64,000 nucleotides of DNA from the NCBI GenBank assembly GCA_037310415.1, contig CP147780.1:1792001-1856000 (forward strand), read 5' to 3'. Origin of the DNA: Candidatus Atabeyarchaeum deiterrae (lineage in GTDB: Archaea > Asgardarchaeota > Atabeyarchaeia > Atabeyarchaeales > Atabeyarchaeaceae). Of the stretch, positions 8,305 through 14,370 are shown piece after piece (position 1 is the stretch's first letter; each line of letters opens with the position of its first letter). A program made the position numbers and the translations under genes. The notes below the pieces were generated by a model. That model saw only the letters and a list, made by a program, of their open reading frames with translations. It did not search any database and was not told the origin of the DNA.

Positions 8305-9348
8305 TTGAGAATACTCAAGATGAAGAAGGACAATTTGGACTGCTTCCTTGAGGAAACCAGTTCATTTGGGGAACTCTGGGGTCCCACCAAGGAAAATGGC
8401 AAATTCACTTACGACAAGATCAAGGATCGAAGTCGACTATACTTGGGAAGCGAGATTCCAATGATTCCTCCGAAGAAACTATTCCACCCTCCAACCTTTG
8501 ACATGTTTCGTTTCTCCGAAAAAGGGCTTGAGCCAAACTATGATTGGGTTACAGACAGAGTCTTATTTGGAATCCACCCATGCGACATACACGGGCTCCT
8601 AATTCTGGACAAGTTCTTCACTGGGTCACCGGCAGATCCTTACTGGAGCAAGGCGAGAGAAAAAACGATCGTCGTGGGCTACTCATGCATCCCATGCGAA
8701 AGTTGCCTGTGCAAGTCCACTAACACTGATATTGTTCACGAAGGGTTCGACCTGTTCTTTACGGATCTCGAAGACTACTACCTGGTTTGGGTCGGTTCAA
8801 GCGTCGGAGACGACATGACACGAGTGCGACAAGACATATTCGATGAGAGAGTTGAGAAGGAAGATATCAAGAAATACTTTGAATGGAGGAAGGAAAGGGA
8901 CAGCTGCTTCGTTAAAGACTTTGAATTCAAGAATCTACCTGATATGATGGAACTAAGTTATGGAACGAAAGTATGGGACAACTGGGGGGAAAAATGCCTC
9001 TCATGCGGGCAGTGCACAATGGTCTGCCCGACCTGCAACTGCTATGACGCTTACGATCAGATCGAGTTGAGCACGGAGTTCAAGGGGACACGTCAGCGTC
9101 ATTGGGACTCTTGCATGTTTTCTGATTACTCTCTTGTCGCGGGTGGACAGAACTTCAGAGGCAAGCGATCTGACCGCGTCAAGCTATGGTATACTCACAA
9201 ACTCAGAGCATATGAGACAGAATCAGGCAAACCAGGCAATCCTTCATGTGTTGGTTGCGGGCGGTGTGTCAAGACCTGCCCCGTTGACATAAACGTGTTA
9301 ACAGTTTCAGACTCGCTCTTGACAGGGGAGGTGCCAAAGAAGCAATGA
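8305..9348 (+). CDS. hydB: Group 3b [NiFe] (sulf)hydrogenase beta subunit (Fe-S)
   Basis: GIHPCD, CLSCGQCTMVCPTC and CVGCGRCVKTCP motifs. First gene of the operon. Confidence 0.9.
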   Translation: MRILKMKKDNLDCFLEETSSFGELWGPTKENGKFTYDKIKDRSRLYLGSEIPMIPPKKLFHPPTFDMFRFSEKGLEPNYDWVTDRVLFGIHPCDIHGLLILDKFFTGSPADPYWSKAREKTIVVGYSCIPCESCLCKSTNTDIVHEGFDLFFTDLEDYYLVWVGSSVGDDMTRVRQDIFDERVEKEDIKKYFEWRKERDSCFVKDFEFKNLPDMMELSYGTKVWDNWGEKCLSCGQCTMVCPTCNCYDAYDQIELSTEFKGTRQRHWDSCMFSDYSLVAGGQNFRGKRSDRVKLWYTHKLRAYETESGKPGNPSCVGCGRCVKTCPVDINVLTVSDSLLTGEVPKKQ

Positions 9349-10208
9349 ACAGATCAAGTAGCGCTAATACACCAAACGAGAATCCTTACCTATCTGAGCC
9401 ATGCCGCATACTGCGCAAGATAGACTTGGCTGAGGGCGTCAGACTGTTCCAGATCCGACCAACAAATGAGAGCTCGACGCTTGCAGCGAACTATGCTCCT
9501 GGCCAATTCGTCATGGTCTCAGTTCCTGGAATAGGTGAAGCGCCTTTCTCTATCTCATCTACTCCTACACGTCCTGGTACCATGGAGTTAGGGATCAGAA
9601 AGGTCGGGAGAATAACTGAAGCGATATTCCAGCTGAAAGAAAAGGACATCATGTTTGTTAGAGGACCATACGGGAATAACTTTAACATCTCCGCGATGGA
9701 AGGCAAAGACCTAATTATCGTCGCTGGGGGAATAGGGCTAATCCCTCTGCGCTCGGTGCTACTTTTCGCGCTCGATAATAGGGAGCTCTTCAAACGGATA
9801 ATGTTTCTGTATGGCGCGCGAACGCCAGACGAAAGACTGTACAAGAATGAGTTGACCGAGCTGAAAGAGCGCGGAGATGTGGAGTGCCACTACTCGGTCG
9901 ACCGTGATCCCACAGGGAAATTCCTTGGAAAAGTTGGAGTAGTCACAACACTCTTTGCTGATCTCAAAGACATAGAGCCTGAGAAGACATCCGTCGTAAT
10001 CTGTGGTCCCCCGGTCATGTACACCTATGTGATAAGAGAACTGCTCAAGCTGAAAATACCTAAGAACCAGATCCAAATGACGCTCGAACGCCGAATGAAG
10101 TGCGGAATAGGCAAGTGCGGTCACTGCGCCTTGGACGAACTGTACACGTGCAGAGATGGGCCAGTCTTCACATACTGGGATGTAATCCACTTCAGGGAGT
10201 TGATCTGA
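9345..10208 (+). CDS. hydG: Group 3b hydrogenase gamma subunit (FAD/NAD(P)-binding, 2Fe-2S)
   Basis: PGQFVM, RGPYGN, AGGIGL, CGPPVM and MKCGIGKCGHC motifs. ATGA overlap with hydB. Confidence 0.92.
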   Translation: MNRSSSANTPNENPYLSEPCRILRKIDLAEGVRLFQIRPTNESSTLAANYAPGQFVMVSVPGIGEAPFSISSTPTRPGTMELGIRKVGRITEAIFQLKEKDIMFVRGPYGNNFNISAMEGKDLIIVAGGIGLIPLRSVLLFALDNRELFKRIMFLYGARTPDERLYKNELTELKERGDVECHYSVDRDPTGKFLGKVGVVTTLFADLKDIEPEKTSVVICGPPVMYTYVIRELLKLKIPKNQIQMTLERRMKCGIGKCGHCALDELYTCRDGPVFTYWDVIHFRELI

Positions 10209-10236
10209 AGGAGGAGCATTTTGGAGGACTATCATC

Positions 10237-11040
10237 ATGTCAAAGGCAAAAGAAGTAACAAAGCCTAAGCTCGGCATTTACGAATTGACAGGTTGTTCCG
10301 GCGAACAGTTAATTTTCCTCCACAGCGAGGAACTCTTACTCGACCTAGTGAAAGTCTTCGATTTACGGGTCTGGGTCATGGCAACAAGCGGTCCAGAAAT
10401 AGACGACGTAGACGTCGCCTTAATTGAGGGTTCCGTGGGCACAGAGCAGGATGCTGAACGGCTAAAGGAAATCAGAAAACGGGCTAAGACTCTAGTAGCC
10501 ATCGGTGACTGCGCCTGTTACGGATGCATCCAAGCCCAGTCAGCCAACGACGGAAAGTATCAGGAAAGACTGAAACTCGTCTACGGAGACCCCTCAAAGA
10601 TAACCGTTCGCAAACCCATGGAGGCCCAACCAGTCGACGCAATAGTCAAAGTAGACTACTCTCTACCCGGCTGCCCGATAAACGCAAGGCAGACCTTTGC
10701 ACTCGTCACTAGACTTGCAAGAGGGTTCCAACCAGAGTCACCCAAGTTCCCAGTGTGTCTGGAATGCAGAATGAAAGACAATAATTGTCTCCTATACAAC
10801 GGCAAGTTCTGCCTCGGACCAATAACCCTGGCTGGATGTGGCGCTGTCTGCCCGTCCTACAACCTCCCCTGTGTGGGTTGCTTTGGATTGAATGAAGATG
10901 GCAACCTAACCTCTGAAATAAAGAAACTTGAGGAGAACGGATTTAAAAAAGAAGATGTGATTCGACGAATCCGAACCTTTGGAGGAACCAAGGCAGCCAA
11001 AACCATAGAGAAACTACTACAGGAGGGAACACTGAAGTAA
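10237..11040 (+). CDS. hydD: Group 3b hydrogenase delta (small) subunit
   Basis: IEGSV, AIGDCAC, LPGCP, VCLEC, CLGPITLAGCGAVCP and CVGCFG motifs. Confidence 0.92.
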   Translation: MSKAKEVTKPKLGIYELTGCSGEQLIFLHSEELLLDLVKVFDLRVWVMATSGPEIDDVDVALIEGSVGTEQDAERLKEIRKRAKTLVAIGDCACYGCIQAQSANDGKYQERLKLVYGDPSKITVRKPMEAQPVDAIVKVDYSLPGCPINARQTFALVTRLARGFQPESPKFPVCLECRMKDNNCLLYNGKFCLGPITLAGCGAVCPSYNLPCVGCFGLNEDGNLTSEIKKLEENGFKKEDVIRRIRTFGGTKAAKTIEKLLQEGTLK

Positions 11041-11230
11041 ACTACCACCGTCTTAAGACGGTGGCTTTCCGTTTAGGTGATAGATATGTGGCACAGCCAA
11101 ACTCACATCACCTGCATCTGGACGGCCGAGGCGGTTTACGTCGCCTCGCTCGGCGGAAACCTGGGCTCACCCGCTCCGCCGAGTGACTGGCTCTTTGCAT
11201 GGGTTTTACGCCCAGTCAGCAACCCTATAC
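11037..11230 (-). ncRNA. Putative TnpB-type omegaRNA/reRNA scaffold inside the element
   Basis: Four consecutive internal stems plus the right-end hairpin, with a TATA-like TTCTTAAA near 11256-11263 upstream on the minus strand. The 5' end is approximate. Confidence 0.55.
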
Positions 11231-11316
11231 CCAAACTAGTAGCACTATGCGGAGGTTTAAGAACTCAACGCAATTCCTCCACTCTTTGAAAGGGTGGTCT
11301 CTTTGTGGTGATTAAT
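11037..11316 (-). mobile_element. Non-autonomous IS200/IS605-family element (280 bp, no transposase or TnpB) with both end hairpins
   Basis: Right end on the minus strand: AAAG, a perfect 20-nt palindrome (11045-11064), then TAGTTTAC. Left end: GAGA at +16..+19 followed by a hairpin (11279-11297), preceded by target TCAT. Removing the element restores an ATGA stop/start overlap. Confidence 0.82.
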
Positions 11317-12624
11317 ATGAAGCGAGACGAAAAATCAATTGACATCGAATACCTTCCCCGAGTTGAGGGGCATGGAGCTATAACAATAGAGATTACGGAT
11401 AGTGGTAAGGTTGGCGATGTGAAAGTCGACATACCAGAAGCTCCAAGACTCATAGAAGCCTTAGTGGTGGGCAAGACTCCTGAAGAAGACTTGAACATGG
11501 TTCCTAGAGTATGTGGCATATGTTCCTTCAGCCACAAGTATGCAGGCATCCGCGCCTTTGAAAAAGCATTGAATGTGGTTCCCTCTAAGAAAGCAGTCGC
11601 ACTAAGAACCCTCCTACATATTTCCGAAACCCTCCAAAGCGACGTTCTACACGTCTTCTTCCTTTCACTACCTGACCTCCTAGGTTACCCCAACGCCATA
11701 GCCATGGCTAGCGACTACAAAGACGCGGTCTTGAGTGCCATGAAGATGAAAGGGTTCGCCAACAAGATGATGGAAATAGGATCCGGTCGATTCGTACACG
11801 GAGAAAACCCAGTCATAGGAGGCTTCGGGAGATACCCATCTGAAGAAGAGCTAACACCACTCAAAGAACAATCACAAGAACTCATTCCACTAGCTGAAAA
11901 AGCAATGAAGCTGCTCGGAGACATGGAAATCCCAACATTCCCAGAACGAGAAACGATCTTCATGTGCCTCAAACCGCCAACAGGAGAATACGGCTTGGTC
12001 GGAGACACGGTATTCGTCTCGGACGGAAAAGAGACACCAGTAGAGAACTACGAACAACTCACAAACGAGAGAGTAGTCTCCCATTCGTTTGCAAAGCGAT
12101 CAACCTACGGCGGAAAACCCTTCACCGTCGGTGCCCTTGCAAGAATAAGCCTCCTCGGAGACCGCCTCAAAGGAATAGCGAAAAAGTATTACGATCAATA
12201 CTACGGTGAGCAGTGGAAGAAGAACATACTATACAACATCCACGCTCAAGCACTTGAAATCCTCTGGTGCCTGCAGGCAGTATTCCCGGTTGTAGACGAG
12301 ATCGTAGAAGCAGAAACGCCGAACGAAGGGATCGCAAAACGAGGCAGGGCAACAGGCAAGGGAACTGGCGCAGTCGAAGCGCCGAGAGGAATACTGTATC
12401 ACCACTATGAGGTCGAGAACAATCTAATCAAGCGCTCCAACATTATCACACCTACCGCGCAGAACCTTGACGACATCGAGGAGTACCTTAAAGTCGCGGC
12501 GACCAACCTTCTGAAGCAGAATGAAAAAGAGGATCTTCCGGCTAAGTTGGAGATGGTTGCGAGAGCATTCGACCCGTGCATCAGCTGCTCAGTACATGTG
12601 CTGCGACTCAAGTCTGGCCAATAG
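11317..12624 (+). CDS. hydA: Group 3b [NiFe] hydrogenase alpha (large) subunit
   Basis: RVEGHG, L1 RVCGIC, EAPRG and L2 DPCISCSVH followed by a short cleavable tail. Confidence 0.95.
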   Translation: MKRDEKSIDIEYLPRVEGHGAITIEITDSGKVGDVKVDIPEAPRLIEALVVGKTPEEDLNMVPRVCGICSFSHKYAGIRAFEKALNVVPSKKAVALRTLLHISETLQSDVLHVFFLSLPDLLGYPNAIAMASDYKDAVLSAMKMKGFANKMMEIGSGRFVHGENPVIGGFGRYPSEEELTPLKEQSQELIPLAEKAMKLLGDMEIPTFPERETIFMCLKPPTGEYGLVGDTVFVSDGKETPVENYEQLTNERVVSHSFAKRSTYGGKPFTVGALARISLLGDRLKGIAKKYYDQYYGEQWKKNILYNIHAQALEILWCLQAVFPVVDEIVEAETPNEGIAKRGRATGKGTGAVEAPRGILYHHYEVENNLIKRSNIITPTAQNLDDIEEYLKVAATNLLKQNEKEDLPAKLEMVARAFDPCISCSVHVLRLKSGQ

Positions 12625-13211
12625 AGTGCTCCAGAGAAACAGGGTTTTCAAACTCACGCCACACTGCATTTTGCATTCATCAAACTGGGAGAAAAGACGG
12701 AGCACGCACCTACTTGAACTCCGGCCAGCGTTGCAGGTGGTGGCATAAGCCGACTTATGTGTATCATGGGCGTTTCAATATGAACAATGTTGGAAACGGA
12801 TGCGATGATTAGGCGTTAATCTTTCTGGCATATCCCACTAAGCTGATTTTTCTCCACCCTTCAATCGAGTTAAATAGTCTTCACTCTATAATGCTATCCG
12901 TCGAAGAGAAGATTACATCTAATGAGCTATAGCTTCAGCCAAGTCATCTGCCAATCATTATCCCTAGTCGTTCGAGTATGATCTCGTATGGTGACCGCAT
13001 GAGGTCCGAGGAAAGAATGCCTCCACCCTGAGGGCGAGTACATGGTGGGGAAAACCCTCAGGATCTATGTCCCAGGGCTCTGTGGAGATCACCAGGATTC
13101 GCTGCCCGGCGGCATAGTTAGTGTTAGCGTGACCGATTTGATTTCGTGATTATTCAAGCCAGCGCTTTGACGGCATGAGTGTATTCTCGAATCAAGAGGT
13201 CGATAGTAATA

Positions 13212-13874
13212 ATGCAGCAAACCGGTGGACATAGAAACCATAGGACCATACTAGGAGAGCAAGCTTGTCGAGTTGTTAGAGCATCCTTGGAGGAACAGTG
13301 TTGGAGGATGCACACGTTTGATTGGGTTCCTATCTTTTCATGTTGTCAGACCTGCTCCAATGAGAAGAAACTATCGGAGGAAGCACGCAAGTCCTATGGA
13401 TGGACTAGGCCTGATTTTCTAGCGAAGTCCCTGTCCGGGAATCTCTGCCTTTTGGAAGTCAAGGGCAAGAGCAGACGCAAGTTTGTCGTTGATGACTTTA
13501 GGTATGAATCTTATGTATACTGGGAGCGATTTCTTGGCATTCCAGCATTCGTAGTTTTCTATGTAAGCTCGGATAACAGACAGGACGATAGCAGATTATA
13601 TCTGCATAAGGTCCTTGATGAGGACGTTAGAATTGGTGATATCGGCGATAACTTGGAGCTACTTGTGGACACAGAGGGCAATGTGAGCCAGACAAATGAT
13701 AAAGTCATATCGTTGAAACGAATAGATTCAGGATGGTTCCTAAGTGAAGAGCTTGAACAACAAATTGATGCCTGGGATGTATCTGAAAGTCTCTCAAAAT
13801 GGATCGAAAGAAAGGACTCCGATTTAAACACCGAGAAATTGTCAGAATCGGCCGTACGCCACCTGCTGCAATGA
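13212..13874 (+). CDS. PD-(D/E)XK nuclease-fold protein
   Basis: RPDFL...LLEVKGK catalytic pattern. ATG at 13212 follows GAGGT. Confidence 0.65.
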   Translation: MQQTGGHRNHRTILGEQACRVVRASLEEQCWRMHTFDWVPIFSCCQTCSNEKKLSEEARKSYGWTRPDFLAKSLSGNLCLLEVKGKSRRKFVVDDFRYESYVYWERFLGIPAFVVFYVSSDNRQDDSRLYLHKVLDEDVRIGDIGDNLELLVDTEGNVSQTNDKVISLKRIDSGWFLSEELEQQIDAWDVSESLSKWIERKDSDLNTEKLSESAVRHLLQ

Positions 13875-14370
13875 GCGTTGAAGCCAGTAAGTCGGATGCT
13901 GGATTTCCGCTACGTTACTCATCGTCATGGTGTTCATGCCCCATTGGCCCAGTGAGATAATGGAAATGTCGTGAAACTAATGAGGACAAATGCGGATGCG
14001 GACGGAGCAGTTAGTCGGAACTTGGTTTTGCAGGAGCCAACCAGGAAATGCATTAGTCTGTCTTGCGTTCTCTTCAGTCTCGCTGCTGTGTGCGCCGAAA
14101 GTGACGGAGCAAAACATAGACCAGGTATGTACGCTGTGATTGCGCTGCTAATATACACTCTGATTTGAACTCTCAATTGTCGAGCCTGCATTTCTCTCCT
14201 CCGATCTGGGCTCTCGATTACATGGCTCATGCGTCGTTTGGACTCTTAATTCTCAAACACATGTCCGGGTGACCAAGGAGTGGAGCGCCACTCGAATATC
14301 TCTGAATTGCCAGAGGCAACTTACCAAAGATTTTTAATACCCCAATCCTACCTTCAGTCAGGGTGAGGGA

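Follow-up and report, generated by a model that had tools for sequence, protein, structure and literature searches.

We report that the 280-bp segment at the junction of hydD and hydA in the window (the whole 64,000-nucleotide stretch of DNA analysed here) very probably arose by deletion from an IS200/IS605 element with a tnpB gene, and inserted 3' of the tetranucleotide TCAT into an ATGA overlap between these two genes (Table 1). The four hyd open reading frames find their best matches in the beta, gamma, delta and alpha subunits of sulfhydrogenase-type [NiFe]-hydrogenases. The element combines a left-end module of about 80 nt with a right-end module of about 200 nt. Both ends carry subterminal imperfect palindromes on one strand, and terminal inverted repeats are absent. 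All of the individual sequence features named in the preliminary description of this region, namely the TCAT, the GAGA at positions +16 to +19, the hairpins, the AAAG and the reading frames, are present as described.

Table 1. Features of the element and its insertion site in the window, and sister elements in the host genome (G000).
Feature	Coordinates	Strand	Remarks
hydD-like gene	10237..11040	+	Small subunit of a group 3b (sulfhydrogenase-type) [NiFe]-hydrogenase; residues 9-259 match profile positions 5-257 of 261; full length
Flank 3' of right end	11017..11036	-	Antisense to the last hydD codons
Whole element	11037..11316	-	280-bp non-autonomous IS200/IS605 element (MITE/PATE); ends common to sister elements; no ORF matching any family
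GTAA	11037..11040	+	Reverse complement of the right cleavage site TTAC
Terminal TAGTTTAC	11037..11044	-	Follows the right hairpin
Right-end module	11037..11236	-	About 200 nt; fold omega RNA-like and conserved
Right hairpin	11045..11064	-	Perfect, 8 bp
Right guide AAAG	11065..11068	-	
TTCTTAAA	11257..11264	-	Conserved as GAGTTCTTAA across left-end alignments of the family
AGGAATTGCG	11269-11278	-	Conserved; follows the left hairpin
Left subterminal hairpin	11279..11297	-	Imperfect, CCAC..GTGG
Left guide GAGA	11298..11301	-	Positions +16..+19; assigned by the IS608 pairing rule and covariation in sister copies
GGTGAT	11307..11312	+	RBS-like hexamer, separated from the hydA ATG by 4 nt; putative RBS
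Start of left end	11316	-	
Target	11317..11320	+	ATGA, start of hydA; its reverse complement TCAT (minus strand, 11320-11317) adjoins the left end
hydA-like gene	11317..12624	+	Large subunit; residues 8-431 match profile positions 5-426 of 426; full length, intact
c409	G000:408323-409686		1364 bp; sole gene encodes a 422-aa TnpB (Pfam Cas12f1-like_TNB, 5e-18)
c2085 and c311			About 390 bp each; protein-less; keep coding remnants of the TnpB C-terminus
L019:322-2937	G000:2362821-2365436		Sister mini-element interrupted by foreign DNA; right hairpin broken after CCACCTATTGAAATA
L020	G000:2003800-2006000		Apparent solo left end, ending at G000:2005771; right end not recognisable
c1485			More distant tnpB element; opposite orientation
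Mini-element	~G000:2216682		Opposite orientation

The assignment of the segment to the IS200/IS605 elements was examined by comparison with sister elements. A profile of the left ~90 nt, searched with nhmmer against the host genome, recovered six copies including the one in the window, with E-values of 1e-16 to 4e-25. The left end of the window element matches the five other sites with E-values of 1e-18 to 4e-25, and its right-end signature recurs at four. The element is therefore more than a chance combination of motifs. Altogether, both ends recur in at least eight related elements in the host genome, and also in relatives, which gives about nine copies in the host genome when the window is included. 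All sister left ends in the host genome adjoin TCAT (one adjoins TCAC) on the top strand of the element and have 17-20 nt to the hairpin foot, and no target duplication was seen for the other copies. The whole 280-bp element has no second copy in the host genome, and a search of 400 genomes of the phylum with its interior gave no match. The orientation of the element is fixed by c409, as the tnpB of this full-length sister runs from the shared left end; the preliminary description had proposed an IS200/IS605 mini-element in precisely this orientation. Like the window element, c409, which is of the tnpB-only IS1341 type, has the left-end core, the GAGA guide, the TCAT target and CCACC..GGTGG hairpins, but its right end reads CAAA...TAGTTGAC.

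Two of the sister sites contain additional DNA. The interrupted mini-element L019 encloses about 2.2 kb with a 414-aa ORF without known family and a 202-aa Peptidase_M48-like ORF (Pfam 7e-13), and this interior could be a nested insertion or captured cargo. Directly interior to the left end of L020 are ORFs of 139 and 74 aa, whose N-termini resemble, by look only, a PIN/AbrB (VapBC-like) pair. The six closest left ends (312145, 409686, 1803316, 2005771, 2085668 and 2365436) share the same chromosomal orientation, and only c1485 and the element at ~2216682 are oppositely oriented. A possible reason for the shared orientation is that single-strand transposition favours one strand with respect to replication.

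The ends of the element follow the guide rule of IS608. For IS608 the left cleavage has been published to lie 19 nt 5' of the hairpin foot, the guide AAAG goes with the cleavage site TTAC and the guide GAAT with TCAA, and A+16 pairs with T-3 and A+17 with T-4. The positional rule that joins +16 to -3, +17 to -4 and +19 to -1 fits both ends of IS608. Applied to the window element, this rule gives TCNT for GAGA, where TCAT is seen, and TTNC for AAAG, where TTAC is seen. The earlier proposal that GAGA specifies TCNT and that both ends fit is thus what the published rule yields, and it is also upheld by covariation in the sister copies: c1485 has AAGA with TTAT and CAAG with TGAC, while the Borrarchaeota copies and the element at ~G000:2216682 have GAAG or GATG with TCAC or TCGC. 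Exceptions to the rule are the right end of c409 (CAAA with TGAC) and that of c311 (TTAA).

The likeness to IS608 extends to the subterminal hairpins on one strand, the 4-nt guides 5' of the hairpin feet, the distance of 19 nt between the left hairpin foot and the junction, and the absence of a target duplication. In contrast to IS608, which targets TTAC and is cleaved on the right at TCAA, the window element has the target TCAT and the right cleavage site TTAC; moreover, this right site ends 8 nt after the hairpin foot and not 10 nt, and the element carries neither tnpA nor tnpB. The right hairpin has a folding energy as DNA of -9.1 kcal/mol (z -4.3). On the active strand, the left hairpin of the window copy has a C:A mismatch, and its stability as DNA is marginal (-3 kcal/mol, z -0.6); on account of this weak left hairpin the window copy may be immobile.

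To identify the uninterrupted junction, the hydD-hydA stretch was searched against 41 relatives. hydD and hydA are adjacent in two genomes of the same family (G001 and G002), and the element is absent from both. The junction in G001, AAGAAATGAA, reads ...GCC AAG AAG TGA AGA... with a GTGA overlap, and that in G002, AAGAAGTGAAG, reads ...GCC AAG AAA TGA ATC... with an ATGA overlap. These junctions match the predicted empty allele in structure, and the 280 bp are therefore an insertion; the empty-site comparison that had been suggested in the preliminary description thus gave the expected answer. The N-termini of hydA also align, with VKRS.. and MNQR.. in the relatives and MKRD.. in the window. 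No join that skips the element was present in the contigs of four DNA metagenome runs, contigs being an assembly product from which rare variants are dropped. Likewise, the predicted empty allele (...CTGAAATGAAG...) had 0 matches in a pattern scan of the JGI metagenomes, a collection that may not include this organism and where a 23-mer from the element interior also scored 0. A contig obtained in another study bridges the right junction with 2 mismatches. Four hydA differences are listed for that run (11406, 11409, 11499 and 11505), and every one of them falls on a third codon position when counted from the ATG at 11317. This hints that the insertion has persisted while hydA was under purifying selection, the contigs concerned being of low depth and not linkable to one strain.

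In its present form hydD ends CTG AAG TAA, of which the final G and the TAA are supplied by the element. In silico deletion of 11037-11316 gives CTG AAA TGA overlapping the ATG of hydA, and the TGA within the ATGA of the target was the hydD stop before the insertion. The hydB/hydG overlap at 9345-9348 is likewise ATGA, so that the sequence agrees with the idea that excision restores the type of coupling seen between hydB and hydG. The split last codon of hydD, AA|A, has become AAG. As AAG keeps the Lys, the TAA follows directly and hydA keeps its own ATG, both hydD and hydA stay intact. The reading frames therefore support the view that the insertion into the ATGA overlap would be silent at the protein level. 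The native AGGAGGG (11023-11029) now lies 288 nt upstream of hydA, and the putative RBS GGTGAT has taken its place. Two in-frame GTG codons at 11305-11316 (GTG GTG ATT AAT ATG) could lengthen hydA by four residues; in the relatives, the hydA starts are the ATG or GTG codons that align with 11317.

A 5-nt repeat, TGAAG, is present at both junctions of the window copy, and we considered whether it could be a target duplication. Such a duplication would delete the ATG of hydA and fuse the two genes, which contradicts the junctions in the relatives, and the other copies of the element are without duplication. We therefore judge the TGAAG repeat to be coincidental.

The right-end module was delimited with the help of metagenome contigs that are ~90% identical to 11077-11236 and diverge beyond 11236, which sets its length at about 200 nt. 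In two wetland runs such contigs occurred at 2-4x the depth of the host genome; this points to parents or sisters of the element residing in other organisms of the community that are more abundant. The right 128-200 nt of the element can be aligned with c2085, c311 and the 3' ends of the full tnpB elements L070-L073 of G002, the identity to the latter being 63-67% over 128 nt, while c2085 and c311 are themselves 75-86% identical to these parents. By comparison, the 3' region of c409 cannot be aligned with the interior of the window element, the right module of which is closer to the G002 elements. The host genome contains no close TnpB of the L070 type, the best one being 33% identical.

An alignment of seven sequences yielded a consensus fold with 59 pairs, 20 of which show compensatory changes; resting on 7 sequences, this covariation gives moderate support to the fold. 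The Alifold energy was -55.8 kcal/mol compared to -20.5 +/- 3.4 kcal/mol for shuffled columns (z -10). The opposite strand gave a weaker fold than the element strand (-47.2 kcal/mol), and 44 G-U cells were counted. An Rfam scan of positions 9000-14000 at E<=1 returned no match. Like an omega RNA, the module occupies the 3' end of the element, lies on the tnpB strand and stops at the right boundary, and in fold and position it looks as an omega RNA scaffold would. If the module were made as an omega RNA, the 20 nt that flank the right end (Table 1) would, by their position, be its guide. The TTCTTAA motif of TTCTTAAA, some 25 nt upstream of the ~11236 module boundary, is possibly the TATA box of a promoter for tnpB and the omega RNA, and the module may be transcribed.

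Since the left end is common to c409 and the right module aligns with the 3' ends of tnpB elements, we favour an origin of the window element by deletion from such a parent. An internal deletion would have kept about 80 nt of the left end, with the GAGA, the hairpin, AGGAATTGCG and the probable promoter, as well as about 200 nt of the right end, with the omega RNA-like scaffold, the AAAG, the hairpin and the TTAC. A Y1 transposase acting in trans would then have inserted the single-stranded DNA into the strand complementary to the hyd coding strand, 3' of TCAT. Seen from the coding strand, the insertion point would lie directly 5' of the ATGA in which the hydD stop overlapped the hydA start. 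With the GTAA of the right end making AAG and TAA, and with the ATG of hydA kept, the insertion would be tolerated and hydA would presumably continue to be expressed.

Where the transposase would have come from was considered by inspecting tnpA genes. The host genome encodes one Y1 tnpA (a 179-aa ORF), located in the IS605-type element L025 (G000:1376458-1380471) together with a 442-aa tnpB. The left end of L025 shares only the GCAAGAAA-hairpin-ATGAATTGCG motifs, and its hairpin sequence differs. The host genome yielded no Y1 transposase whose hairpins clearly match. G001 and G002 contain tnpA elements whose ends are related, whose target is TTCAT and whose right end has the form CAAG-hairpin-TAGTTGAC. 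Thus, of the tnpA and tnpB with the same ends that the preliminary description had called for, tnpB was found in the tnpB-only element of 1364 bp, whereas the host tnpA shares no more than the flanking motifs. From these sequences, mobilisation in trans appears plausible.

Protein-less elements of this kind are known from Geobacillus stearothermophilus, where PATEs with IS200/IS605 ends have in many cases retained the omega RNA and need TnpA and TnpB to be supplied in trans; the TAM or target of ISGst5, an element that carries IscB, is TTCAT (Meers et al. 2023, bioRxiv 10.1101/2023.03.14.532601). PATEs that carry an omega RNA and the TTCAT target have thus been published already, and the window element belongs to a known class. 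It differs from the bacterial ISGst PATEs in that its host is archaeal, probably an Asgard archaeon, and its parent a tnpB-only element of the IS1341 type; the passages of Meers et al. (2023) considered here describe no insertion into an overlap of operon genes. The window element and its sisters document TnpB-type elements and their omega RNA-only derivatives in a probable Asgard archaeon. The window element is also a clean illustration from nature of how an insertion inside an operon overlap can be silent at the protein level owing to the sequence logic of a single-strand transposon, its target being the reverse complement of ATGA and its right end reading GTAA.

This fit between element and site had been taken in the preliminary description as a possible adaptation, in the sense that the TCAT target and the stop and RBS at the ends of the element had evolved for harmless landing in translationally coupled ATGA junctions. 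Indeed, judged by sequence, all three features work at hydD/hydA as described, and a TTAC right end placed in any ATGA overlap directly gives NNG TAA. Moreover, the full-length relative L115 (from an Aenigmarchaeota MAG) is apparently located in an ATGA overlap, after a zinc-ribbon-like ORF of 77 codons, and L106 is possibly another such case; the upstream ORFs of both L115 and L106, however, are without family match. Against an adaptation speaks the distribution of the copies in the host genome. None of the about eight other copies lies in an overlap, and only the ATGA of the window copy is a real gene start. Crude ORF-based gene calls for the host genome gave 29,950 ATGA sites, of which 802 (2.7%) are at gene starts; among the ATGA sites that do not disrupt coding sequence, gene starts make up 14.7% by the same crude calls. 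The 5,452 non-disrupting sites include 32 ATGA overlaps and, with this background, the single overlap among about nine copies is not significant (p ~0.05). Accordingly, the TCAT flanks anticipated for other copies are there, but an enrichment at ATGA overlaps in the host genome is not. In addition, the GTAA stop is an automatic by-product of the TTAC cleavage site, and relatives with TGAC have no immediate stop. The RBS-like left end is equally frequent at gene starts and away from them (6/25 versus 6/25), so that we reject it as an adaptation, and an RBS-like end is lacking in those subfamilies that occur most frequently at start codons. Right ends could be placed at few loci only, by matching of hairpin arms, and many copies are at contig ends. 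On balance, we consider an adaptation of the element to coupled junctions improbable. Even less credible, and in our view very unlikely indeed, is the reading that the element has been domesticated as a stand-alone guide RNA gene, the guide of which would be antisense to the 3' end of hydD and would direct a TnpB-like protein to regulate the hyd operon. The omega RNA-like fold has been kept although tnpB is gone, a probable promoter appears to be retained, and the guide position falls on hydD. Yet the flank of any TnpB element is its guide, so that selection is not needed to account for this position. The TAM (TCAT, which TnpB requires beside its target) and the guide sequence would be found together only in the empty site, and the host genome contains no cognate TnpB. 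A deletion derivative that inserted at a TCAT and was tolerated there remains the preferred explanation for the window element.

A search with the left-end motif GCAAGGAGACC-N14-26-GGAGGAATTGCG around a hairpin identified 72 loci (L076-L147) in Methanotrichaceae, Ethanoperedens, DPANN lineages, Asgard MAGs, Clostridia, cyanobacteria, Geobacter and others. The GCAAGGAGACC-hairpin-GGAGGAATTGCG core is identical letter for letter across archaeal phyla and bacteria, which is unusually strong for a transposon end across domains. (T)TCAT flanks 53 of the 64 scored copies, without target-site duplication, and a T at -5 (TTCAT) is found in about three quarters of the TCAT-flanked copies, the spacer being 17-20 nt. 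The 53 are independent TCAT-flanked copies from archaea and bacteria that were left after removal of duplicate flanks.

As the reverse complement of (T)TCAT is ATGA(A), it is conceivable that this family is preferentially targeted to, or retained at, start codons, with hydD/hydA as one instance, although we hold this to be less likely than not. In its favour, 25 of the 53 TCAT-flanked copies have an ORF of at least 100 aa starting exactly at the target ATG, and NCBIfam or Pfam matches indicate true N-termini for ArgD, a GT2 glycosyltransferase, Lrp, an LMW-PTP, a dCTP-deaminase-like protein and CitG. The expected fraction is 14.7% when sites in the host genome that do not disrupt coding sequence are considered, or 20%, the share of all ATGA sites in the same loci that are followed by 100 open codons, and nulls of 15-25% give binomial p-values of 3e-8 to 4e-4. 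It should be noted, however, that the null stems from crude ORF calls in one genome, and that a null of 30% leaves a p-value of only 0.006. Among the Asgard copies there is no excess (about 4-5 of 26). A mechanism is not evident, the target does not visibly extend past the T at -5, and an insertion at this position should separate a gene from its promoter. The start-codon bias is thus suggestive, and unexplained. A wider reading, which we also consider less likely than not, is that elements with the GCAAGGAGACC-hairpin-GGAGGAATTGCG core and a (T)TCAT target occupy host start codons (ATGA, gene overlaps of this sequence included) about 2-3x more often than expected from tolerance of non-coding insertion alone, which would imply either a targeting bias towards regions of translation start or an unrecognised way to keep the downstream gene expressed. 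A search of the literature on start-codon targeting by IS200/IS605 elements returned nothing relevant, and the start-codon occupancy of the (T)TCAT-targeting group may, on this preliminary basis, be new. If true, this bias would bear on how abundant elements and their TnpB/IscB nucleases choose sites or survive at them, and on how frequently the expression of neighbouring genes is rewired.

Lastly, a Methanophagales MAG harbours a 238-bp mini-element of the same family (L143:3841-4078), placed exactly at the start codon of a citG gene that is full length (Pfam 2e-74, profile positions 2-284 of 284), and the right end of this mini-element has the form AAAG-hairpin-TAGTTTAC, as does that of the window element.
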